From Oscillospiraceae bacterium (GTDB lineage: Bacteria > Bacillota > Clostridia > Oscillospirales > Oscillospiraceae), in the NCBI GenBank assembly GCA_902767395.1, contig CACXHI010000017.1, positions 1 to 33,683 of the forward strand: DNA of 33,683 nt, written 5' to 3'. Below are positions 3,413 through 31,875 of this stretch, piece after piece. The translations under genes were made by a program, and so were the position numbers. Under the pieces are notes generated by a model. The model ran no database searches and was not told the DNA's origin. It was given only the letters and a program-made list of their open reading frames with translations. Each line of letters begins with the position of its first letter. The first letter of the stretch is position 1.

Positions 3413-4186
3413 ATGGAAAAACGCACGACCGTCCTGGTCGCGGACGGAAGCGAGGAGTTCTGCGCACAGCTTTCCGGCGCGCTTCAAAACGGAGGGTATC
3501 AGGTGGTGGGGACGGCTGCCGATGGAAATTCCGCCATAGAGCAGATTCGAGCCGCAGCCCCGGAGGTGGTGGTTCTGGATTTGATGCTGCCCAAGGCGGA
3601 CGGAATCACGGTTCTCAAGTCGCTGCCCCGGGAGGGGCGTCCCAAGATCCTGCTGCTTTCCGCGTTTGCGACGGATTACGTCGCCACTGCTGCGGTTGCG
3701 GCTGGGGCGGATTATCTGATGCTCAAGCCCTGTTCGGCGCAGACCGTCGCGCTGCGGGTAGGGGAAATCTTAGAGGCCGAGCGCGCTGCCGCCAACAAAC
3801 GGCAGAGTCAGGCGCCCGACATCGAGACGCTGGTGACAAACGTGATCCACGAGATTGGCGTCCCTGCTCACATTAAGGGCTACCAATATCTGCGGGAGGC
3901 CATCATTATTGCCGTTGGTGATATGGAGGTCATCAACGCGATTACGAAGGTGCTCTATCCGCAGGTCGCTAAGACCTTCTGCACGACGCCCTCCCGTGTC
4001 GAGCGGGCGATCCGTCACGCAATCGAGGTGGCGTGGGATCGGGGCGATTTGGACACGCTCCAGCGCTTCTTCGGCTATACCGTGTCCAATACCAAGGGCA
4101 AGCCCACCAACAGCGAGTTCATTGCCCTGATTGCCGATCGGCTCCAGCTTCAGCTCCGCAGCAGCGGGATGAAGGCGGCCCGGTAA
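3413..4186 (+). CDS. spo0A: sporulation master regulator Spo0A (response regulator with Spo0A-specific DNA-binding domain)
   Basis: 257 aa. Receiver domain with the phospho-acceptor context [13 protein letters not shown]. The C-terminal domain carries Spo0A-specific blocks [49 protein letters not shown] and [21 protein letters not shown] upstream. Confidence 0.95.
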
Positions 4187-6295: not shown

Positions 6296-7741
6296 TTAAT
6301 TTTTTCTCCAGATGCCTGGGGAGAGAGAAATCAGCATGGGATAAATCTCCAACCGGCCGAAGAGCATGGCAAAGGATAGCAGAACCTTGCAGACCGGCGA
6401 GTATCCGGCGTAGCTCGCAGCCGGGCCGACCAAGTTCAGGCCGGGACCGATGTTGTTGTAGCAGGCTGCGACGGCAGTAAAATTCGACACGCCGTCAAAG
6501 CCGGGCTGAAAAGAAAGCAGAAACCAGAATGCGACAAAAAGACCGACGTAAATTGCAAAATAGGTGCTGACGCTGATCAGCGTGCTGCTGTCCACCGGCC
6601 TGCCTTCAAAGCGCACCGAGGTCACGGCGCGGGGATGCAGAAGGTGGCGAATCTCCCGCCGAAAGGTCTTGAACAGCAATACCAGCCGCGACACCTTGAG
6701 CCCGCCTGCGGTGGAGCCGGCGCACGCGCCGATGAACATCAAAAGAACAAGAAGCATCCGGGACAGGGTTGGCCACGTGTCGAAGTTCGCGGTGGAATAG
6801 CCGGTCGTCGAGGAGATCGTGGTGACCTGGAAAAAGGCGTGCCGCAGGGATTCGGAGAAGCTGGGAAACAGCGGGCGGATGTTCCAGCAGATCAACCCGG
6901 TGGCGACGAGCACGATCCCCACGTAGGTCCACAGCTCCTCGCTGCGGAAGGCGGCCCGGAACCGCCGCATGATGAGCAGAAAAAAGAGGTTGAAATTGAT
7001 GCCGAAGAGCATCATAAACACCGCAATCACCCATTGGAGGTAGGGACTGTACCCGGCAAGCGAGTCGGCTTTGATTCCGAACCCGCCGGTGCCCGCGGTG
7101 CCGAAGGTGTGAACGGCGCTGTCAAACAGCGGCATTCCGCCTGCGACCAGAAGCAAAAACTCCAGAACGGTCAGGGCAATGTAGAGCAGATAGAGCAGCT
7201 TTGCGGTATCTCCGAGCTTGGGCGAGAGCTTGCCCATGGTGGGCCCGGGCATTTCCGCGCGCAGGATATGAATGGTCCGCCCGGAGAGATTAGGCATGAC
7301 TGCAACCATCAGCACCAGAACCCCCATACCGCCGATCCAGTGGGTGAAGCTCCGCCAAAAGAGCATCGAGCGGCTCATGACCTCCACGTCGGTGAGAATG
7401 GAGGCGCCTGTGGTGGTGAAGCCCGAGACGGTTTCAAAGAATGCGTCCACAAAGCACGGAATCTCACCGCTGAGCACGAAGGGCAGCGCGCCCAACGCGG
7501 AGACGATGACCCACGCCAACGCAGTGATGAGAAAGCCCTCGCGGGCATAGATTACCTGACTGTCCGGGCGGAATACCTTGATGAAGAGCAAGCCAAGCCC
7601 CAGCGAGAGGGCAATCGTCAGCAGCAGGGGGAGCTGCCCCCCATCCCAGTAGTAGACCGACACCGCAAGCGGAAGGGCAAGCACTGCGCCCTCCAGCAGC
7701 AGAATGCGGCCAATCGTATAGAAGACCATTTTCCGATTCAT
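6296..7741 (-). CDS. trkH: TrkH-family K+ uptake membrane subunit
   Basis: 481-aa polytopic ORF with repeated selectivity-filter-like motifs (SGFTTTGAS, GTAGTGGFG, TTISSTTGYS, GSTAGGLK) typical of TrkH/KtrB. AGGAGG upstream. Confidence 0.9.
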   Translation of the reverse strand: MNRKMVFYTIGRILLLEGAVLALPLAVSVYYWDGGQLPLLLTIALSLGLGLLFIKVFRPDSQVIYAREGFLITALAWVIVSALGALPFVLSGEIPCFVDAFFETVSGFTTTGASILTDVEVMSRSMLFWRSFTHWIGGMGVLVLMVAVMPNLSGRTIHILRAEMPGPTMGKLSPKLGDTAKLLYLLYIALTVLEFLLLVAGGMPLFDSAVHTFGTAGTGGFGIKADSLAGYSPYLQWVIAVFMMLFGINFNLFFLLIMRRFRAAFRSEELWTYVGIVLVATGLICWNIRPLFPSFSESLRHAFFQVTTISSTTGYSTANFDTWPTLSRMLLVLLMFIGACAGSTAGGLKVSRLVLLFKTFRREIRHLLHPRAVTSVRFEGRPVDSSTLISVSTYFAIYVGLFVAFWFLLSFQPGFDGVSNFTAVAACYNNIGPGLNLVGPAASYAGYSPVCKVLLSFAMLFGRLEIYPMLISLSPGIWRKN

Positions 7742-23242: not shown

Positions 23243-24067
23243 TTACGCATAGCTGTGAAGCCCCGGCAGAAGGGTGTTGACTCCCACGTAGGTGAACAGA
23301 ACGCAGACAAAACCGACCACGGCGAAGATGGCGGCGGTCCGGCCCTTCCAGCCCCGGCGAATCCGCAGATGCAGATAAGTGGCATAGATCAGCCACGTCA
23401 CAAGCGACCAGGTCTCCTTCGGGTCCCACGACCAGTAGGAGCCCCAGGCCTGTTCCGCCCAGATCGCCCCGGTGATGATCGTGAAGGTCAAAAACAGCAG
23501 ACCGAGACAGACGCTTCGGTAGGAGATCAGATCCAGCTTTTCTCTTGCTGGAATGTGCTTGTCCCAGAAGCCCTGATTCTTCATCCGCTCCCGGAGCAGG
23601 AAGATCAGCCCCAGAACCGCGCTGACGCCGAACGAGCCGTAGGCGATGATGGCAGTCGAGACGTGAAAGCCCAGCCAGCTCGAACGCAGAGCGGGCATCA
23701 AAGCCTTGACCTCCCGGCTCTGCATGGCGGCATAGCCGATCAGCAGCAGAATGATCGGGGCGGCGAAGGTGCCGATGACCGGAAATTTGAATCTCCAGAT
23801 GAACACAAGACTTACCAGACAAAGCCCCCACGCGAAGCTGGTGGCGAATTCATACTGGTTGGTCAGCGGAAGCCGCCCTGCGCCGATCCCGCGCAGAATG
23901 AGCGCCGCCGTGTGCAGCACAAGGCCGAGAATCTGAATTGCGGCGGCGGCCTTTCCCAGAGCTTCCTTCTTGACGGTGACGAACAGGAAATAAAAAACGG
24001 TTGCTGCAAAATACAGGCAGATCACGGCATAGAAGAAAATGCCTTCGAGATTCAGCAGATTCGTCAT
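23243..24067 (-). CDS. ccsA: System II cytochrome c biogenesis heme-handling protein CcsA/ResC
   Basis: 274-aa polytopic protein with the Trp-rich WWD-type motif WGSYWSWDPKETWSLVTW and the flanking His in YLHLR. Confidence 0.9.
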   Translation of the reverse strand: MTNLLNLEGIFFYAVICLYFAATVFYFLFVTVKKEALGKAAAAIQILGLVLHTAALILRGIGAGRLPLTNQYEFATSFAWGLCLVSLVFIWRFKFPVIGTFAAPIILLLIGYAAMQSREVKALMPALRSSWLGFHVSTAIIAYGSFGVSAVLGLIFLLRERMKNQGFWDKHIPAREKLDLISYRSVCLGLLFLTFTIITGAIWAEQAWGSYWSWDPKETWSLVTWLIYATYLHLRIRRGWKGRTAAIFAVVGFVCVLFTYVGVNTLLPGLHSYA

Positions 24068-24081
24068 AATCGTACCTTCTT

Positions 24082-25335
24082 TCAGCTTTGAACTTGGTTT
24101 GCCGCCTCGCGGACCTGCTCTGCGAACAGCGCTCCGCCCTTGGGACTGCTTCCGAAGACGGTCCAGCCTCCGTCCGCTTCCCGAATGGCCCAGACACGCC
24201 GGGTCTGGCAGTAGAAGGCGAGGAACAGTCCGAGCAGGGTGATCAGCCCGCCGGCAAGGGCAAGGCGGCTGAAGCGGTCTCGCTTCAACTGGATGAGCGT
24301 ATAGCTCTGCGGCTCGGAAAAGGAGACCTCATAGGGCAGGAAGTCCTGAATCGTCCCGCCCTCGGGCTGGACGTCCATGCCGTAGAACGAATCGTCAATG
24401 TAAATTTGGTAGGCATAGCCGGGGACGGAGCTGCCGTTTGCAGCCTTGTCATGGTCCGCAAGGACGGCGCGAAGCTGTACCTGCAGGGGGGTGTTCAGCA
24501 GGGAGATTTGCTCGCCCACACAGAGGACGGCCTCCTGCACGGTTTCCCCGTCCCTGCGCACGGTGAAATGCGCTGCGTCCCCGGTGGAGTTCTGATAGAG
24601 CTTGAAGCCGAACGCAGAACCGGGGTGGTTGACGCTGGCAGTCGCGTCCTGCGCGAGCACGTCGTCTTCGTTGGAGAGGTCGTACAGCGTCAGCGCCGTC
24701 GTGTACTGCGTCACGAAGCCGTCGGCCTCGCGCTGCAGCTGGAAATCGCGGATTTTCAGGGCGTATTCCGTCCCCTCGATCTGCTTGACCTGCCCGGGAA
24801 CGCCGTAGACGGTGTACTCCTCCTTGGTCATCTGACCCAGCACAAAGCCGAGAATCAGGAGCAGAATCCCGAGGTGGCAGACCCATGCGCCCCAGAGCCC
24901 GGCGCGGTGCTTCACCGCGATGCGCAGCGTCCGTCCCTCAGCGTCGGTGTGCTCGACGGCCTTCGGCATACGGAGCCGGGTCAGAACCGCGTCCGGGTCT
25001 TGGACGCCGCCGACGGTCACGGTCGGCGCCCCCAGATGGGCGGGGTCGCCGGCCTGACGGCTTCGGCGCAGAAGCTGGGGAAGACGGAGCAGGTTGCAGA
25101 GCAGAAGGTTGCCGCACAGAAAGCCCGTCAGCACCAGCACCCACCAGCTGTGGAACACGTCGTCCAGCCGCAGGGCGAGGATCAGACCCGCCGTGCGCTC
25201 CGAGTACAGCGCCGCGTATTCCTCATAGCGCAGACCCTGCGGCAGAAAGCTTCCGCCCGCGCAGGCCAGAGCGAGGACCACCAGAAGCCCAATGGCAAAC
25301 TGCATCGAGCCCAAGAATTTCCAGAGCTTTTTCAT
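24082..25335 (-). CDS. resB: System II cytochrome c biogenesis protein ResB/CcsB
   Basis: From ATG 25335 (AGGAG SD): MKKLWKFLGSMQFAIGLLVVLALACAGGSFLPQG, the typical ResB N-terminus, then a large extracytoplasmic domain and a C-terminal TM. The track start 25422 crosses the upstream hairpin. Confidence 0.88.
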   Translation of the reverse strand: MKKLWKFLGSMQFAIGLLVVLALACAGGSFLPQGLRYEEYAALYSERTAGLILALRLDDVFHSWWVLVLTGFLCGNLLLCNLLRLPQLLRRSRQAGDPAHLGAPTVTVGGVQDPDAVLTRLRMPKAVEHTDAEGRTLRIAVKHRAGLWGAWVCHLGILLLILGFVLGQMTKEEYTVYGVPGQVKQIEGTEYALKIRDFQLQREADGFVTQYTTALTLYDLSNEDDVLAQDATASVNHPGSAFGFKLYQNSTGDAAHFTVRRDGETVQEAVLCVGEQISLLNTPLQVQLRAVLADHDKAANGSSVPGYAYQIYIDDSFYGMDVQPEGGTIQDFLPYEVSFSEPQSYTLIQLKRDRFSRLALAGGLITLLGLFLAFYCQTRRVWAIREADGGWTVFGSSPKGGALFAEQVREAANQVQS

Positions 25336-25356
25336 CGTTGATCTCCTGTAAAGCGC

Positions 25357-25389
25357 AATAGCGGCAGAGCGTAACGCTCTGCCGCTATT
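25357..25389 (-). other. intercistronic 15-bp perfect hairpin between nrfA and resB
   Basis: AATAGCGGCAGAGCG / TAA / CGCTCTGCCGCTATT, located between the rnfB-nrfA stop (25419) and the resB start (25335). No U-tract follows on the minus strand. Confidence 0.6.
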
Positions 25390-25418
25390 GTATCGGTTTT
25401 TAGGAGAATTGTCAATTA

Positions 25419-26750
25419 TCAATTCTCGATGCCGAGCAGATCCATACCCTCGGTAATCTTGCTCTCGGCGGTGTCAAGACAGCGGGTGGCAAGCTCAGAG
25501 TTGTGCGCGCCCTCAGAGTTCTCCACATAGTCAAAGTCGAAGAACCACTGGGCCTCGCGGTAAAGCTTGCGAATGGCATTCAGCTCGTCCTCGGTCTTTG
25601 CTCCGGGCGCGCCCTCCTCGGCGGCCTTCACGGCGTCCGCCAGCGCGTCCTTGAACGCGGAGAGCTTGTTGCCGACCTCCGCCTCCCGGGCAGTGATGCG
25701 CTCCTGAAGCTTGTGTACCATTTCGACCATGTCGGTGTCGCCGTGGCACTGAACGCAGGTGGAGAGGAGGGTTTTGTCGTTGAGCGGGCTGTCGATGTAG
25801 TGGCTGTGATAGATCGTGCCGTCCTCCTCCTGCACGATGGCCATGTGGCAGTCGGCACAGCTCATGCCCATCGCGGCGTGCTTGCCGGAGAGATAGGTTT
25901 CCGTCTCAGGGTGCTGGGCCTTGAGCATGTGGGCGCCGGTGGAGGGCTGAATCCAGTCGTAGAAGCCCTGCTCGCCGTCCTTGTTCTCAATGCTGTCATA
26001 GTAGGCCAGAATCGCCTCGGGCGTCATGGCCTCCACACTGTCATAGGGCATCATGGTTTCGGCGTCGGCTACGGTGAAGTAGTACTCGATGTGGCACTGT
26101 CCGCAGGACAGAGTCGAGGGAGCGATGCGCTCCGCGTTTGCGCCAAGGGCCTTGTTCACGTAGGAATGCGTGATGGTAATCTGCCCCTTGTTTCCAGCGT
26201 CGTTGCCGTGGCAGGTGTAGCAGGAAACGCTCTCCTCCATCTTTCCCATGACCTCTTCAAAGTCCCACTTATAGACCTCCACGCCGTTGTCGTTGACCAG
26301 CTTGGCAAAGTTGGGGGTCTTGCAGGTCAGGCAGTTTGCCATTGGGTGCGGCCGCTCGGTTTTGCCCACGTCGGTCAGGCAGAACGCATGTCCGCGGGCG
26401 GAGCCGTAATCCCTGGCGAAGCCGTAGCCCTCGTAGACGTTGACGAGATACGGATCCTGCTCCAGATAGTCCGCCACCTCGGCGTTGTCGGCATTGGCCT
26501 TCATGCTCTTGGCGATGTAGGGGAAGACGCTCTCCCAGTCCGCGGCGTTCACAGTGCCGTCCTTGCTGCTGGCGACGGGGGCGTCCAGCGTGACGTACTG
26601 AATGTCGCTTCGCGTCAGGGGGCCGAGCTCGCCCCGGTTGCCCAGATGATACATGGTGTTGCCGTTCAGCACACCGCTCAGCAGCAGAACGGCGGCAGCG
26701 ATGATGAGCAGGGCGCACACCACTTTCCAAATAATTGTCTTCTTATCCAT
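25419..26750 (-). other. nrfA: NrfA (cytochrome c552 nitrite reductase) module with its own in-frame SD+ATG and signal-anchor helix
   Basis: AAAGGAG (26762-26756) lies 5 nt before ATG 26750. MDKKTIIWKVVCALLIIAAAVLLLSGVL is anchor-like. The rest aligns with NrfA hallmarks RDY..RGHAF, CxxCK, CGQCH(I/V)EYYF, LKAQHPE, CxDCHM. Confidence 0.85.
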
Positions 26751-27584
26751 CTTGTCTCCTTTTTGGCCGGAGGCCGTTCTTCCGGTGGGCAGGGTAGCTG
26801 CGGTGGTGATGACCTTTGCGGGGCATTTCTCAGCGCACTTGCCGCACTGCACACAGTTTTCGTAGTTGACGTGGGCCAGATTGGTCTGGACGGAAATGGC
26901 GTCATGCTCACACTGGCGGACGCAGAGAGAGCAGCCGATACAGCCGGCGGAGCAGACCTTTTTCACCTGCGGTCCCTTGTCGCGGTTGGAGCACTGAACG
27001 GCCACCTGCTTGCTTTCAGGCACCAGCTCGATCAGTCCCTTGGGACAGGCCTTGGCGCACAGGCCGCAGCCCACGCAGCGGCTGCGGTTCACCACAGCCA
27101 CGCCGTCGCGGACGGTGATGGCGTTTTCCGGGCAGACCTTGATACAGGAGCCGAGCCCCACGCAGCCGTAGTCGCAGTCGGTCAGGGCCAGGCCCGCGCG
27201 AACCGCGCTCGCGCAGTCCGCAATGCCAACGTAGTTGCCCTGGTTGGAGGTGAATTCGCAGGAGCCCTTGCACTTGACAAAGGCGATTTTCCGCGCAACG
27301 TCGCCTGCCTCGGTTCCCATGATCGAGCCGATCTTCTGGGCAACGGGCGAACCGCCTACGGGGCAGCCGTTCACCGGCGCCTCGCCCTTGGCAATGGCGG
27401 CCGCCATTGCGTCGCAGCCGGCGTAGCCGCAGGCGCCGCAGTTGTTACCGGGCAGAACCTCCCGGACGGCGGCCTCGCGCGCATCGACCTCGACGTAGAA
27501 TTTCTTCCCCATGAAGACCAGACCGGCGCCGACAATGATGCCGATTACGGTGATGACCGCAGTGGTAATCAGAATGAGATCCAT
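25419..27584 (-). CDS. RnfB-NrfA fusion: Rnf complex subunit B (polyferredoxin) joined in frame to pentaheme cytochrome c nitrite reductase
   Basis: One uninterrupted frame of 721 codons from ATG 27584 (TAAGGAGG SD; the TAA is the rnfA stop) to TGA 25419. The N-terminal 278 aa are RnfB: TM helix, CGACGYAGC...GCPVGG cluster, four CxxCxxCxxxCP-type motifs. Then come a 19-aa linker, a second TM helix and a 443-aa NrfA with CLTCK (26319-26333), CYTCH, CGQCHIEYYF, CADCH, CVQCH and MLKAQHPE. Confidence 0.85.
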   Translation of the reverse strand: MDLILITTAVITVIGIIVGAGLVFMGKKFYVEVDAREAAVREVLPGNNCGACGYAGCDAMAAAIAKGEAPVNGCPVGGSPVAQKIGSIMGTEAGDVARKIAFVKCKGSCEFTSNQGNYVGIADCASAVRAGLALTDCDYGCVGLGSCIKVCPENAITVRDGVAVVNRSRCVGCGLCAKACPKGLIELVPESKQVAVQCSNRDKGPQVKKVCSAGCIGCSLCVRQCEHDAISVQTNLAHVNYENCVQCGKCAEKCPAKVITTAATLPTGRTASGQKGDKMDKKTIIWKVVCALLIIAAAVLLLSGVLNGNTMYHLGNRGELGPLTRSDIQYVTLDAPVASSKDGTVNAADWESVFPYIAKSMKANADNAEVADYLEQDPYLVNVYEGYGFARDYGSARGHAFCLTDVGKTERPHPMANCLTCKTPNFAKLVNDNGVEVYKWDFEEVMGKMEESVSCYTCHGNDAGNKGQITITHSYVNKALGANAERIAPSTLSCGQCHIEYYFTVADAETMMPYDSVEAMTPEAILAYYDSIENKDGEQGFYDWIQPSTGAHMLKAQHPETETYLSGKHAAMGMSCADCHMAIVQEEDGTIYHSHYIDSPLNDKTLLSTCVQCHGDTDMVEMVHKLQERITAREAEVGNKLSAFKDALADAVKAAEEGAPGAKTEDELNAIRKLYREAQWFFDFDYVENSEGAHNSELATRCLDTAESKITEGMDLLGIEN
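26751..27584 (-). other. rnfB: RnfB module (N-terminal TM, RnfB-type Fe-S domain, 2 x 2[4Fe-4S] ferredoxin domains, linker)
   Basis: MDLILITTAVITVIGIIVGAGLVFMGKKF...LPGNNCGACGYAGCDAMAAAIAKGEAPVNGCPVGG..., then CVGLGSCIKVCP, CVGCGLCAKACP, CIGCSLCVRQCE, CVQCGKCAEKCP. There is no stop codon at its end. Confidence 0.85.
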
Positions 27585-27594
27585 GGCGCCCTCC

Positions 27595-28176
27595 TTAGAA
27601 CGACAGGCCGGAGAAGCCCATGAAGGCAATGGACATGAGCGCCGCTGCAATCAGTACGATGGGCGCGCCCCGCAGGGGAGCGGGGAGGTCGTCCTCGTTG
27701 ATGCGGCTGCGAATGCCCGCCAACAGGACAATGGCCAGAGTGAAGCCCAGCGCGGTGCCGAAGCCGGAGAGAACGGATTCGATGAAGTTGTAGCCGTTCT
27801 GCACGTTGGTCAGAGCCACGCCGAGCACGGCGCAGTTGGTGGTAATCAGCGGCAGGAAGATGCCCAGCGATTTGTAAACGGCGGGGGCAGCCTTTTTGAG
27901 GAACATTTCCACAATCTGCACCAGCGCCGCAATCACTAGAATGAAAACGATGGTCTTCATGAAATCGAGACCCAGCGGTTCCAGCACGTAGGTGTAGAGC
28001 AGGCTCGCCACGGCGGAGGCGATGGTAATGACGAAGATGACCGCGCCGCCCAGAGAAGCGGAGGCCTTCATTTGCTTGGATACGCCGAGGAAGGAGCAGA
28101 TGCCGAGGAACTGGCTCAGAACCACGTTGTTAATCAGCGCGCCGGAAACAATCAGCAGCAGCAAATTGTGATTCAT
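27595..28176 (-). CDS. rnfA: Rnf electron transport complex subunit A
   Basis: From ATG 28176 (GGAGG SD): MNHNLLLLIVSGALINNVVLSQFLGICSFLGVS..., the RnfA/NqrE signature; 193 aa with six TMs. Overlaps the rnfE stop by 4 nt. Confidence 0.92.
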   Translation of the reverse strand: MNHNLLLLIVSGALINNVVLSQFLGICSFLGVSKQMKASASLGGAVIFVITIASAVASLLYTYVLEPLGLDFMKTIVFILVIAALVQIVEMFLKKAAPAVYKSLGIFLPLITTNCAVLGVALTNVQNGYNFIESVLSGFGTALGFTLAIVLLAGIRSRINEDDLPAPLRGAPIVLIAAALMSIAFMGFSGLSF

Positions 28177-28853
28177 TTCGCCACCTCCTTCGAGGCCTCG
28201 CACTGAGAGGCACAGCTGGCGCAGCAGCCGTCGCAGCCGCTCTCTACCAGCTTGCGCTGGCGGGTCTTAATGCCGACGGCGTTCATAATGATGATGAACA
28301 GGGCAATGACCAGAAACGCGCCGGGAGGCTGGATGAAGATACCGATGGGCTCAACGGTCTGCGGCAGGATCTGCACGCCGAAGCAGGTGCCGCTGCCGAG
28401 AATCTCACGAACCGCGCCGGCCAGTGTCAGCGCGACGGTGAAGCCCAGTCCCATACCAATGCCGTCAAAGACGGAGAGCAGGGGCGTGTTCTTGTTGGCG
28501 TAGGCCTCGGCACGGCCAAGAATGATGCAGTTGACCACGATGAGCGGGATATAGATGCCGAGCGCCTCGTAAACCGAGGGCAGATAGGCCTCAATCAGAA
28601 GCTCCGTCACGGTGACCAGCGAGGCCACGATGACGATGTAGGCCGGAAGACGGACCTGATCGGGTATGACCTTTCGCAGCAGGGAGATGACCAGATTGGA
28701 CAGCACCAGAACCGCCAGCGTCGAAAGACCCATGCCAATGCCATTTGCGGCGCGGGTGGAGACTGCCAGCGTCGGACACATGCCCAGCATCAGGACCAGC
28801 GTGGGGTTTTCCTTGATGAGACCGTTGTACAGCCGTTCGAGATATTTGTTCAT
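28173..28853 (-). CDS. rnfE: Rnf electron transport complex subunit E (with Cys-rich C-terminal tail)
   Basis: GLIKENPTLVLMLGMCPTLAVST is the RnfE/NqrD signature; 226 aa. The tail GCDGCCASCASQC is at 28200-28235. Confidence 0.92.
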   Translation of the reverse strand: MNKYLERLYNGLIKENPTLVLMLGMCPTLAVSTRAANGIGMGLSTLAVLVLSNLVISLLRKVIPDQVRLPAYIVIVASLVTVTELLIEAYLPSVYEALGIYIPLIVVNCIILGRAEAYANKNTPLLSVFDGIGMGLGFTVALTLAGAVREILGSGTCFGVQILPQTVEPIGIFIQPPGAFLVIALFIIIMNAVGIKTRQRKLVESGCDGCCASCASQCEASKEVAK

Positions 28854-28854
28854 C

Positions 28855-30396
28855 TTACTCCCCCCTTATCTTTGTGTTGATGAAGTCGAGTCCTGCGTTC
28901 ACCGCGTTGACGACGGCTTTGGAGGTGATGGTCACGCCGGTGATGCCATCCACGTCCTCGCCCAGCGTCAGCTGGTCGGCCTGCTTGCCCGCGAACTGAT
29001 CCATGAATGCAGGCTCCCCGCAGAGCATTCCCTTGCCGGGCGTTTCGTGAAGCTCAGTGAAGGAGATGCCGTTGATCACACCGTCAGTACTGACGCCGAT
29101 GGAAAGGGTCACGTTGCCGTCATAGCCCTCGGCGGAGGTGACGGAGACCGCGTAGCCCACCACGTTTCCGGCGGCGTCCTTGCCAACCAGCGCGTCCTTG
29201 ATGTAGACCCGCCCGTAGCCGGTGCCGTAGACCTCGCCGCCGAGGAACTCCACCTTGTCGGAGAAGGACTCAAAGCTCTCCGCCTCGGGAAGCACCGTCT
29301 TGTAGGCAGCGGCGGCCGCCGCGTTTTTCTGCTCGTCGATGGTGGATTTGGTCATCGAGAAAACGCCGGACAGCGCCAGACCGGAGAGCAGCGCAATCAC
29401 GGACAGGGCGATCACGGGCTTGGGAATCCGCTGTGACAGCGGCTTCTTTGCCTCGCCGCTGCGTATCTTCAGCGCGCGCCTGCGGAAGGCGTAGGGCTTG
29501 TCAACAATGTAGGTGTCGATCAGCGGGACAAAGAGGTTTGCCACAATGATCGAGTAGCTGAACGAGTCGGCGGACTGGCCCTTGATGCGGAACAGAGCGC
29601 CGAGCACGCCGATCAGAACGCCGTAGAAGGTCTGACCCAGACGGCTCATGGGGGAGGTAACGTAGTCGGTGGCCATGAAGAACGCGCCGAGCACGACGCC
29701 GCCGCCGCACAGGTGGGCGGCAAGGAAGCCGGGGTCGAAGCCCTGCCCGCCGAAGAGGGCCATGAACAGGGTGAAGCCTCCGAGCACGGAGAAGCAGATT
29801 TGCCCGTGGATGATGTCAAAGGCCCAGAGCGCAAGACCACCGATCATCAGGCCGAGAATCGAGCCGCCGATGACGCCGTTGGCGCTGCCGAGGAACATCG
29901 AGGTGATGTCCACGACCCGCCCTGCGGCCAGCTCCGCACAGGGAGTGGCGGAGGCCACGCCGTCAATCCCATAGACCGTCATGGCGTTGGGGAAGGAGAT
30001 CAGCAGGAAGCACCGGGCAGCCAGAGCCGGGTTGACGAAGTTCTTGCCCAGACCGCCGAAGGCGCATTTGACGACCAGAATCGCGAAGATAGAGCCAATG
30101 ACCGGCGCGTAGAGCGGCGTTTCGGCGGAGAGCGTCAGCGCCAGCATCAGGCCGGTGACAGCGGCGGAGCCGTCCTTCCAGGAGTCCGGCTTCCCCGTGA
30201 GCTTATCGAAGACCAGCTCCGTGAGCACCGCCGTAATCACAGAGGTCAGAATCACCCAAAGGGCGTGCAAGCCGAAGGTGATAATGCCGATGACGGTGGC
30301 CGGCATCAGCGCCAGCAGAACCATCTTCATAATGAAGGAAGTGGACCAAATGTCTCTTACGTGAGGGCCGGCGGAAAGATTTAATCTCTGATTCAT
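28855..30396 (-). CDS. RnfD-RnfG fusion (both covalent-FMN subunits in one 513-aa ORF)
   Basis: Residues 1 to about 309 are RnfD/NqrB-like (LSAGPHVR, GLGKNFVNPALAAR, flavinylation-type SAT in GVASATP, FMATDYVTSP, VPLID). A basic linker (FRRRALKIRSGEAKKPLSQRIPK, about 29400-29470) and a TM helix follow, then an RnfG/NqrC FMN_bind domain ending DGITGVTITSKAV. No stop and no SD at the junction. ATGA overlap with rnfC. Confidence 0.88.
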   Translation of the reverse strand: MNQRLNLSAGPHVRDIWSTSFIMKMVLLALMPATVIGIITFGLHALWVILTSVITAVLTELVFDKLTGKPDSWKDGSAAVTGLMLALTLSAETPLYAPVIGSIFAILVVKCAFGGLGKNFVNPALAARCFLLISFPNAMTVYGIDGVASATPCAELAAGRVVDITSMFLGSANGVIGGSILGLMIGGLALWAFDIIHGQICFSVLGGFTLFMALFGGQGFDPGFLAAHLCGGGVVLGAFFMATDYVTSPMSRLGQTFYGVLIGVLGALFRIKGQSADSFSYSIIVANLFVPLIDTYIVDKPYAFRRRALKIRSGEAKKPLSQRIPKPVIALSVIALLSGLALSGVFSMTKSTIDEQKNAAAAAAYKTVLPEAESFESFSDKVEFLGGEVYGTGYGRVYIKDALVGKDAAGNVVGYAVSVTSAEGYDGNVTLSIGVSTDGVINGISFTELHETPGKGMLCGEPAFMDQFAGKQADQLTLGEDVDGITGVTITSKAVVNAVNAGLDFINTKIRGE

Positions 30397-30866
30397 TTCC
30401 TACCTCCTGCCTGCGCTGCCCGTTTCCGGGCCAGAATCTCCGCTTTGGTCTGCTTGAACATCTGCGTCAAGGGCCGCCGGGCCGGACAGATGTAGGTACA
30501 CGAGCCGCAGGCGATACATTCCAGACCGTAGAGCTTGGTTTCGTAGCGTTCCCAGTTCTTCATGTTGATGGCGTCGGCCATCAGCGCGGGAACCAGTCCG
30601 TTCGGGCAGATGGTGGAGCAGCGTCCGCAGTGCAGACAGGCGGTCATCTCTTTCTCCGCCTTCTCCACGCGGTCGTCTGCAAGGAGCGTGAGCGCGTTGG
30701 TGTTCTTCTGGATGGGGACGTCCAGACTTGCCACGGCAACGCCCATCATGGGGCCGCCGGAGAGCGCTTTTTTCGGCGTGCATCCGGCTTTGACGCCGCC
30801 GCTGGCCTCCAAAAGCTGCGCAAAGGTGGTGCCGTCTCTGGCAATGAAGTTGGAAGGGGTCTGCAC
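30393..30866 (-). CDS. rnfC: RnfC C-terminal fragment as called in the ORF track (2 x [4Fe-4S] ferredoxin part); alternative representation of the rnfC locus
   Basis: The track ORF starts at GTG 30866 with no convincing SD. The same frame is open back to the TAG at 30906-30908. Confidence 0.5.
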   Translation of the reverse strand: MQTPSNFIARDGTTFAQLLEASGGVKAGCTPKKALSGGPMMGVAVASLDVPIQKNTNALTLLADDRVEKAEKEMTACLHCGRCSTICPNGLVPALMADAINMKNWERYETKLYGLECIACGSCTYICPARRPLTQMFKQTKAEILARKRAAQAGGRK

Positions 30867-30905
30867 GGCCTCGCCGGTGACGGTGAGAACATGTTCAAAC
30901 AGCGG

Positions 30906-31748
30906 CTAGTTCCAAGCCACGGCCCGCCCGATTGCATAGGCCGTGCCCACGTTGAGCACGATGCAGCCGACGTCTGCCGGAAGCATGGACACGGGGAAGT
31001 CCACCCCCGCGACGACGCGGATCAGACTGCGTTCGCCGCCCTGCGGGTATTTCGTGTGCAGGGGCAGCACCCGCATCCGGCGCTTGCCGGCAATCGCCTG
31101 CCGCATCGCGGCAATGGCCTCGGGCTTGTTGTCCTCAATGCCGATGACGCACTCAGCGTTGTCAAAGAGTCGAAGCGCGAGCTCCAAACCCTCCACAATG
31201 CCCGCCGCGTGGCTGCGCATGAGCTGGTCATTGCAGGTGATGTAGGGCTCGCATTCCGCGCCGTTGGCAATGAGATAGCGAATCTGATCCGGCACCTTGG
31301 GTGCAAGCTTGACGTGCGTGGGGAAGCCTGCCCCGCCGAGACCGACGATTCCGGCGTTCCGAACGCGGTCAAGAACGTCCTGATTTGTGAGCTTGTCGAC
31401 CTCCTGCCGCTGTCCGAGTCCTTCAATGGGCGTGTACTGTCCGTCGTTTTCCACGACGACGCACTCGGACATGGTACCGGCGATGGTACGCCGCTTCTCG
31501 ACGGCCTTCACCGTGCCGGAGCAGGAGCTGATGACACAGGCGGAAACGAATCCGTCCGCCTCCGCGAGCTTTTGTCCCACCAGAACCGGATCATTTTTCT
31601 TGACAATGGCTTTTGCGGGTTTTCCGATGTGCTGTGCCAGGGGAAAGACCATCTCGCCGGGAGGCGGGTCGAAGCGATGCAGGGTTGCGTTCCTGCTCAG
31701 CTCCTTCCGTCCCTTGGGATGGACTCCTCCGCGAAAGGTTATGTTCAC
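30906..31748 (-). CDS. rnfC: RnfC N-terminal fragment (barrel-sandwich + NAD/FMN-binding part) ending at the in-frame TAG; alternative representation of the rnfC locus
   Basis: The track ORF 30906-31781 begins at a TTG without an SD. GTG 31748 has an AGGAGGG SD. Confidence 0.55.
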   Translation of the reverse strand: MNITFRGGVHPKGRKELSRNATLHRFDPPPGEMVFPLAQHIGKPAKAIVKKNDPVLVGQKLAEADGFVSACVISSCSGTVKAVEKRRTIAGTMSECVVVENDGQYTPIEGLGQRQEVDKLTNQDVLDRVRNAGIVGLGGAGFPTHVKLAPKVPDQIRYLIANGAECEPYITCNDQLMRSHAAGIVEGLELALRLFDNAECVIGIEDNKPEAIAAMRQAIAGKRRMRVLPLHTKYPQGGERSLIRVVAGVDFPVSMLPADVGCIVLNVGTAYAIGRAVAWN

Positions 31749-31846: not shown

Positions 31847-31875
31847 ATGATAGCACAGAAAAAATAAAAAGGCAA
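31847..31875 (-). promoter_or_regulatory. sigma-A-like promoter for the rnf-nrfA-ccs operon (TTGCCT-N17-TATCAT, TGn extended -10)
   Basis: On the minus strand: TTGCCT 31875-31870, 17-nt spacer ending TGC, TATCAT 31852-31847. This lies in the AT-rich divergent intergenic region and leaves a leader of about 90 nt before GTG 31748. Confidence 0.4.

Follow-up and report, generated by a model that had tools for sequence, protein, structure and literature searches.

Linkage of a membrane-anchored NrfA nitrite reductase to a clade of Rnf operons with fused RnfD and RnfG in gut and rumen anaerobes

Known partners of NrfA and of Rnf

Contig CACXHI010000017.1 of an Oscillospiraceae bacterium (assembly GCA_902767395.1) carries an operon in which the genes for an Rnf complex run into nrfA, the gene for cytochrome c nitrite reductase, and then into resB and ccsA for System II cytochrome c maturation. 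The stretch analysed, here called the window, is the whole contig stretch of 33,683 nucleotides (nt). A 2025 review lists three partners of NrfA, namely NrfH, CymA and NrfB/CD, all of them quinol-linked, and nrfH normally adjoins nrfA (PMC12285233). The NrfA in the window shares with the NrfHA, NrfABCD and CymA-dependent systems the same catalytic subunit (PF02335), with one CxxCK and four CxxCH motifs and the active-site and Ca-site motifs, and, as in NrfHA systems, nrfA has System II maturation genes for neighbours. However, no NrfH or NrfBCD-type partner was found within 10 kb in the 89 loci compared here, and this NrfA is anchored by a membrane helix at its own N-terminus, has a juxtamembrane motif particular to the family and is placed behind rnfB.

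In the solved Rnf complexes, electrons follow a U-shaped path from ferredoxin through the clusters of RnfB, the [2Fe-2S] cluster of RnfA/E, the flavin mononucleotide (FMN) of RnfG, the FMN and riboflavin of RnfD and then RnfC to NAD+; the mobile FMN domain of RnfG lies on the periplasmic side, and the helix of RnfG is packed against that of RnfB (PMC11889175, PMC9588780). Na+ is moved by RnfA/E upon reduction of the [2Fe-2S] cluster, which is then reoxidized by RnfG-FMN, and RnfD takes no part in pumping (PMC11889175, PMC9588780). The operon in the window is like the canonical Rnf of Acetobacterium woodii and Clostridium tetanomorphum in its six subunits, predicted FMN-attachment threonines, [2Fe-2S] cysteines and polyferredoxin RnfB. 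It differs in that RnfD and RnfG form one polypeptide throughout the clade and in that nrfA-resB-ccsA is appended, whereas 44 of 44 outgroup operons are without nrfA.

A cytochrome linked to Rnf has been described in Methanosarcina acetivorans, where MmcA, an operon-encoded heptahaem protein related to OTR, lies on the outer face, is fed from ferredoxin through Rnf and forms a conduit to methanophenazine, Fe(III) or anthraquinone-2,6-disulfonate (AQDS); Bacteria in which Rnf carries electrons between ferredoxin and NAD were stated to have no MmcA (PMC11024163). The two operons are alike in that a c-type cytochrome gene is conserved inside an rnf operon. Unlike MmcA, the cytochrome in the window is a catalytic pentahaem NrfA with a CxxCK motif, encoded after rnfB, helix-anchored or fused and supplied with its own resB and ccsA, and RnfC is retained. 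NrfA would thus be an analogue of MmcA in wiring; homology is unlikely, as the two are set apart by motif count, by Pfam assignment and by the description of MmcA.

Meheust et al. proposed in 2021 that Rnf can have a second exit, directed outward, by way of multi-flavinylated RnfG-type subunits, and they also noted multihaem-containing RnfGs in Christensenellales (PMC8238504). One of the variants described below, represented by protein cluster P0010, may well be such a multihaem RnfG protein. However, NrfA is not mentioned there, nitrite appears only in other contexts, and neither a plain anchored NrfA nor an RnfB::NrfA fusion is described (PMC8238504). Full-text searches of the literature found no paper linking Rnf with NrfA. 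Both the enzyme and the complex in the window are known; the way in which they are joined had not been described.

An Rnf clade that carries nrfA

The operon runs along the minus strand from the GTG start of rnfC (31748) to the stop codon of ccsA (23243) in the order rnfC, rnfD::rnfG, rnfE, rnfA, rnfB::nrfA, resB, ccsA, so that all six Rnf subunits are co-encoded. Genes were assigned with Pfam and NCBIfam profiles at their curated cutoffs, which were exceeded throughout (TIGR scores and cutoffs of 302 and 246 for rnfC, from its N-terminal fragment alone, 222.8 and 207 for rnfD, 246.6 and 213 for rnfE, 261.5 and 229 for rnfA, and 104 and 68.7 for rnfB) except that the RnfG part scored 100.9 against TIGR01947, just under the cutoff of 102; it scored 59.8 against Pfam FMN_bind (cutoff 22). 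Adjacent genes overlap or nearly abut, with ATGA at rnfC/rnfDG, TAAGATG at rnfDG/rnfE, ATGA at rnfE/rnfA and TAA, 10 nt and ATG at rnfA/rnfB, and resB begins 83 nt after nrfA and ccsA 14 nt after resB. The one-strand layout and junctions given in the first-pass annotation agree letter for letter with this, and its statement that nrfA is embedded in and fused to the rnf operon was borne out.

With each GTDB species represented by one genome, a scan gave 332 relatives. The order rnfC-D::G-E-A-B-nrfA-resB-ccsA was present in all of the best 80, which were kept, with rnfB directly upstream of nrfA in 80 of 80, and the same eight-gene order recurred in every context look-up of homologues of NrfA and RnfD::G. 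As a control, 80 metagenomic rnf loci related to an RnfD::G representative of 43 % identity were used; 44 of them extend 5 kb or more downstream of rnfD, and none of these 44 has nrfA, resB or ccsA. Judged from gene order, the association of rnf with nrfA is therefore far beyond chance, confined to a single Rnf clade and present throughout that clade. Nearly all carriers are metagenome-assembled genomes from rumen or gut, mostly labelled Oscillospiraceae, Clostridia, Ruminococcaceae, Lachnospiraceae or Christensenellales, and a few are labelled Erysipelotrichales (L019, L086 and P0039). Three loci labelled Sphaerochaetaceae, Spirochaetes and Spirochaetales (L049, L088 and L089, respectively) cluster together on the neighbour-joining tree of NrfA, and this clustering suggests horizontal spread of the whole eight-gene cassette.

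Candidates for another electron donor were sought as open reading frames (ORFs) of at least 40 aa with CxxCH motifs in all six frames. The fusion ORF is the only one in the window with any CxxCH, confirming the earlier statement that no NrfH-like ORF is present, and no second ORF with three or more CxxCH occurs within 10 kb in any of the 89 comparison loci, which include flanks of 10 kb. NrfA is also the only visible client of the co-encoded ResB and CcsA; resB lies 3' of nrfA in 83 of the 89 loci.

The Rnf that carries nrfA is, from comparison of its sequences, a distinct clade with fused RnfD and RnfG. The two are one polypeptide in 76 of 76 assessable relatives and in all homologues of 63 % identity or more. 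Of the three oddities that the first-pass annotation had singled out, this clade-wide fusion is the only one that holds as a design feature. It is only partly specific to the linkage with NrfA: although fixed in the clade, fused forms also occur outside it, among proteins at 34-45 % identity and in an outgroup locus (L126) without nrfA. Residues predicted to bind cofactors are conserved. The covalent-FMN threonine of RnfD (SAT-P) is invariant (77/77), the RnfG flavinylation motif reads TGVT in the window where the family consensus is SGAT (pattern [ST]G[AV][TS]), and the four [2Fe-2S] cysteines of RnfA (C27/C115) and RnfE (C26/C109) are essentially invariant in the clade and correspond to C25/C113 and C25/C108 of A. 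woodii (PMC11889175). A C-terminal tail of RnfE (28176-28240 in the window) has the form GCDGCCxxCxxxC, with four or five cysteines in 80 of 84 clade members. This tail was considered as a clade marker and rejected, as it is also present in 21 of 65 outgroup rnf operons. From an NqrD-like topology it is presumably cytoplasmic.

The NrfA domain has five haem c sites, CLTCK (residues 418-422), CYTCH, CGQCH, CADCH and CVQCH. The Cys, Lys and His residues of the first four are invariant in 41 sequences, in which C610, C613 and H614 of CVQCH are conserved at 90 % or more. The best match among solved structures is Escherichia coli NrfA (1GU6, E = 6e-48), with which the active-site and Ca-site motifs RGH, CHIEYYF and KAQHPE align, and these motifs too are invariant in the 41 relatives. 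From its motifs the enzyme looks catalytically competent. Its score for PF02335 is 261.5 (cutoff 24.1), whereas those for the NCBIfam equivalogs NF008339 (222; cutoff 595) and TIGR03152 (182; cutoff 692) fall short, and it therefore belongs to a divergent NrfA clade and is not an E. coli-type equivalog. The anchor helix is followed, before the catalytic core, by a conserved segment, GPLTRxDIxY...AP.A.SKDGT.NA.DW, which precedes the region alignable with E. coli NrfA. Two tandem NrfAs without linkage to rnf lack its GPLTRxDIxY part, and these observations suggest that the segment may be a docking element.

In the window, rnfB and nrfA form a single gene for a protein of 721 aa with FeS, Fer4 and Cytochrom_C552 domains (E = 1.9e-77 for the last). 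An AlphaFold2 (AF2) model of the fusion, with a mean predicted local distance difference test (pLDDT) score of 61 and values under 50 in the RnfB part, was used for topology only. It has a helix at residues 2-24 and a Lys-rich coil linker of about 25 residues with pLDDT under 50. As modelled, two helices flank the cytoplasmic FeS domain and place NrfA outside, where System II attaches haem. Inside the fused genes nrfA still has its Shine-Dalgarno sequence and ATG, so that free NrfA may still be made.

The same 721-aa fusion occurs in three further conspecific assemblies from other samples and in clusters P0001 (93 % identity) and P0002 (84 %). Though real in this species, it is sporadic elsewhere and is no fixed hallmark of the system: among the 88 comparison loci with rnfB beside nrfA, five are fused and in 83 the genes are separate. 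Fused forms lie at no fewer than three well-separated places on the NrfA tree with unfused sisters adjacent, which on this tree means that the fusion arose or was lost at least three times. One nucleotide at the junction separates the two states: the codon is AAA in fused L001 and TAA in unfused L035.

The median gap between rnfB and nrfA in the unfused loci is 12 nt, and in 71 of the 83 (L003-L089) the rnfB stop is in frame with the nrfA ATG, at spacers of 3, 9, 12, 15, 18, 21, 24, 27 or 33 nt. The in-frame stops are TAA (47), TGA (19) and TAG (5), and this pattern suggests a fused ancestor or frequent toggling. Programmed read-through of the rnfB stop was considered and is unlikely given the predominance of TAA, taken to be the tightest stop codon; descent from a fused form or toggling is more plausible. 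At L077, the closest species-level relative, 100 nt from the region of the linker and membrane helix are duplicated in tandem (~7610-7720), which splits the fusion into an RnfB-plus-helix and NrfA, and in the conspecific L093 (12221-14978) the calls for rnfA (243 aa) and rnfB::nrfA (662 aa) are aberrant. Both lesions are likely assembly artefacts or strain variants.

A further variant, cluster P0010 (124 member sequences; L003, 10001-12613), is encoded directly 3' of rnfB; it has, in order, a membrane helix, an FMN_bind domain with the putative flavinylation motif AGAT and two NrfA domains. From its domain order, it would place an extra flavin relay next to NrfA on the outer face. Tandem NrfA-NrfA polypeptides, with copies that are by eye about 90-98 % identical, are found in P0010 and in P0004 (L004, 10001-12436), P0011 and P0013 (L009 and L098), and those such as P0004 may mimic the usual NrfA dimer. 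In L003 a small gene for a NusG domain II protein (PF07009; 12620-12967) lies between the FMN_bind-NrfA-NrfA gene and resB.

The proposed electron path and its competitors

We estimate a probability of about 65 % that NrfA is the terminal module of this Rnf and draws electrons from the outward-facing flavin of RnfG, making the whole a ferredoxin/NADH:nitrite oxidoreductase that is independent of NrfH and quinol. The proposed device would be one membrane machine, a complete Rnf (C, D::G, E, A and B) bearing a membrane-anchored pentahaem NrfA on its extracytoplasmic face, with the haems attached by ResB and CcsA. Reduced ferredoxin would enter at RnfB, and electrons would pass to the membrane [2Fe-2S] cluster of RnfA/E, the Na+/H+-pumping step in canonical Rnf, and then to the covalent FMN on the mobile outward-facing domain of RnfG. 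From there they could go inward via RnfD and RnfC to NAD+ or out to the haems of NrfA, where nitrite would be reduced to ammonium outside the membrane. NADH would be able to feed the same exit through RnfC and RnfD. Retention of RnfC makes it probable that there are three ports in the complex, for ferredoxin, NAD(H) and nitrite. The covalent link between RnfB and NrfA would be a tether produced by loss of the rnfB stop and not an electron path, though it shows that both proteins can sit side by side.

Given the path in solved Rnf, only the flavins of RnfG and RnfD would be within reach of an NrfA on the outside. The first-pass annotation had proposed a feed from these outward flavins, and comparison gives that proposal strong support because of the synteny in at least 80 species, the repeated fusion of rnfB with nrfA, the FMN_bind-NrfA variant and the cytochrome c maturation genes in the operon. 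The wiring is further supported by the fact that the linkage is both exclusive to and universal in one Rnf clade with no other donor gene nearby, that the RnfB-NrfA tether has been tolerated repeatedly and P0010 adds a flavin next to NrfA, and that the Rnf core is intact, the NrfA motifs are complete and the topology fits. There is also precedent, in MmcA of Methanosarcina and in the second RnfG exit proposed for other RNF clusters. The sequences themselves show the gene content, the cofactor motifs, the topology, the conservation and the lack of an NrfH nearby; physical docking, the transfer from flavin to haem, the donor and the ion coupling are what we infer from this evidence.

Several observations weigh against this wiring. 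No clade-specific insertions were found in RnfD or RnfG when compared with 69 and 39 outgroup sequences, respectively, and the single-chain AF2 model of the fusion is poor (mean pLDDT 61). With fusion and fission one nucleotide apart and most lineages unfused, the fusion itself is weak evidence. Two tandem NrfA genes, P0011 and P0013, are followed by resB but do not adjoin rnf, and hence the linkage is not absolute. An nrfH, genes for quinone synthesis or a second rnf could lie elsewhere in the carrier genomes, beyond the 10-kb flanks, and rnfC contains a TAG codon in this assembly. Finally, an electron that leaves the cell would cancel the charge of the single Na+ pumped per electron.

This last point bears on what the machine would be for. 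Flow from ferredoxin to nitrite would be roughly electroneutral, and flow from NADH to nitrite would dissipate charge but be strongly downhill. Because the exiting electron would offset the charge of the Na+ pumped, the system may be a self-paying, charge-neutral electron sink and not a high-yield energy-conserving respiration. The wiring may also be as proposed but its job a different one, a valve for detoxification or electron dumping (of nitrite, nitric oxide (NO), hydroxylamine or sulfite) by which fermenters reoxidize ferredoxin and NADH while making ATP by substrate-level phosphorylation, with no respiratory energy conservation. NrfA enzymes also reduce NO, hydroxylamine and sulfite, and the hosts are rumen and gut fermenters, including this Clostridia genome with its Spo0A gene. 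One Na+ would be pumped per electron at RnfA/E while the electron itself exits the cell (reasoned from PMC11889175). Nothing contradicts such a valve, which differs from the respiratory oxidoreductase in physiological role only; we regard it as a tentative possibility, with the balance somewhat against it.

It is rather unlikely that the genes are co-transcribed but not wired together, with an ordinary ferredoxin:NAD+ Rnf, nrfA-resB-ccsA riding along, and NrfA reduced by an unlinked quinol dehydrogenase of the NrfH or CymA type, another membrane donor or extracellular shuttles. Nothing in the Rnf looks rebuilt for NrfA, given that the core has no clade-specific insertions and RnfC is retained; in addition the fusion is confined to 5 of 88 loci, tandem NrfAs exist away from rnf, and nrfH or quinone genes could lie beyond the flanks covered. 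Simple co-transcription is, however, difficult to reconcile with linkage in 80 of 80 clade genomes and 0 of 44 outgroup loci, with the very short spacers between rnfB and nrfA, with the repeated tolerance of fusions and with the existence of the FMN_bind-NrfA variant. The 89 loci also contain no multihaem partner within 10 kb, whereas nrfH normally adjoins nrfA (PMC12285233).

If NrfA is fed by Rnf as proposed, the direct feed would explain nitrite ammonification by fermentative Clostridia, which are expected often to be without quinones. It would extend Rnf in Bacteria from a balancer of ferredoxin and NAD+ to a respiratory or electron-sink platform, a role so far established only for MmcA of Methanosarcina. 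The carriers, at least 80 species-level genomes and mostly uncultured, come from habitats where nitrate feeding, nitrite toxicity and competition with methanogenesis for reducing equivalents are at issue, and surveys that count nrfA and conclude that NrfH-type quinone-linked respiration is present would place these organisms wrongly. For purification and structural work, the naturally occurring RnfB::NrfA and FMN_bind-NrfA-NrfA fusions provide ready handles.

Taken jointly, the parts would give cytochrome c nitrite reductase, in Rnf-NrfA, a redox partner of a fourth kind, and for the first time one that does not depend on quinol. One complex would accept electrons from ferredoxin (and NADH), pump Na+/H+ at RnfA/E and release the electrons to NrfA via the outward flavin of RnfG. 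Among bacterial Rnf complexes it would be the first to include a cytochrome c as a subunit, in this case a terminal reductase, encoded by an eight-gene cassette that moves between phyla of gut and rumen anaerobes, and the in-frame rnfB stop (71/83) would mean that the tethered form is ancestral or has been regained repeatedly. For the combination as a whole the odds appear to us to be about even.

The rnfC stop codon and other features of the window

The interrupted rnfC had been listed among the oddities of the operon, but the in-frame TAG is a private change from GAG (Glu) that is absent from four conspecific assemblies and 72 relatives. The conspecific assemblies, which share 99.6 % identity over the 8.7-kb operon, have GAG at this site and encode a 451-aa RnfC from the same GTG start. 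RnfC is intact in 72 of 72 relatives, which rules out an interrupted rnfC as a family trait, and the codon at the site specifies Glu in 68 of the 72, being GAG in the two closest, L077 and L072. Selenocysteine or other recoding at the break was also ruled out: the codon is TAG and not TGA, TAG is an ordinary stop in the window, where it ends 5 of 25 genes, and the relatives have Glu/GAG. Among the 23 differences between the window and the four conspecific assemblies, 11 are clustered within 80 nt (30888-30969) of rnfC, where 10 of the 11 are synonymous and the remaining one is the GAG to TAG change; from this pattern, the patch looks like a recombination tract or the consensus of a strain mixture.

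That the in-frame TAG, a normal stop in the window, marks the operon as a decaying pseudogene cluster, and the system as broken in this genome, is very improbable when the near-identical conspecific assemblies have GAG, the part of rnfC 3' of the TAG is undecayed and encodes a protein identical to that of L077, the TAG lies within the patch of mostly synonymous changes, comparable artefact-like lesions occur in neighbouring assemblies, and even a truncated RnfC would leave the proposed path from ferredoxin to NrfA intact.

The features of the operon are listed in Table 1.

Table 1. Coordinates of genes, domains and putative sites of the rnf-nrfA operon in the window
Feature	Coordinates	Strand	Basis or remarks
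Promoter-like site 5' of rnfC, TTGCCT-17-TATCAT with TG extension (extended -10)	31847..31875	-	Consensus match only
rnfC, NAD(H)/FMN subunit; GTG start 31748, in-frame TAG 30908-30906	30393..31748	-	RnfC_N, Complex1_51K, SLBB, 2x[4Fe-4S]
rnfD::rnfG fusion, 513 aa	28855..30396	-	NQR2_RnfD_RnfE and FMN_bind in a single ORF
RnfD predicted flavinylation site, Thr151	29944-29946	-	Motif
RnfG membrane helix	29359-29418	-	
RnfG predicted flavinylation site, Thr489	28930-28932	-	Motif
rnfE; [2Fe-2S] ligands Cys26 and Cys109, Cys-rich C-terminal tail	28173..28853	-	Profiles and conservation
rnfA; [2Fe-2S] ligands Cys27 and Cys115	27595..28176	-	Profiles and conservation
RnfB part: N-terminal membrane helix (residues 2-24), FeS/polyferredoxin domain, linker of ~25 residues	26754..27584	-	Pfam, AF2
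Retained internal nrfA start (KMDKK), Shine-Dalgarno AAAGGAGA directly 5'	26739..26753	-	Former intergenic spacer, now read through
Second membrane helix (residues 284-306), N-terminal NrfA anchor	26667..26735	-	Sequence, AF2
Juxtamembrane motif GPLTRxDIxY, candidate docking segment	26595..26624	-	75 sequences
NrfA catalytic domain: CLTCK (26319-26333), four CxxCH, RGH, CHIEYYF, KAQHPE	25419..26594	-	
Perfect stem-loop between nrfA and resB, stem of 15-17 bp depending on tool	25355..25391	-	-39.4 kcal/mol, z = -7.4
resB, System II cytochrome c biogenesis	24082..25335	-	Pfam
ccsA/ccsB, System II haem lyase	23243..24067	-	TIGR03144, 268.9 bits (cutoff 187.6)

No nitrite-responsive regulatory signal was found by a palindrome search of the rnfC upstream regions, by Rfam or by folding of the leader. 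A search for perfect palindromes among 65 non-redundant regions upstream of rnfC revealed no common operator, but the method is weak and this is not evidence of absence. No Rfam family reached threshold across the whole window, and the rnfC leader folds no better than shuffled sequences (z = -0.57). Of 77 related loci, 66 have strong structure in the spacer between nrfA and resB, and in the window the stem-loop of this spacer is overlapped by a TTGACA-17-TACAAT site (11/12 match). It may be an attenuator, a stabilizer or an internal promoter that tunes the ratio of structural to biogenesis gene expression.

No apbE, quinone-synthesis (men/mqn) or nitrate reductase gene is present in the 33.7-kb window, in which the remaining genes are housekeeping ones, for BacA, Mrp, Spo0A, LytR, a sortase, two Trk systems, MatE, GalE, AdoHcy hydrolase and an ABC exporter. 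The presence of spo0A (3413-4186) indicates a host from an endospore-forming lineage of Firmicutes, in agreement with the Oscillospiraceae labels of the nearest relatives.

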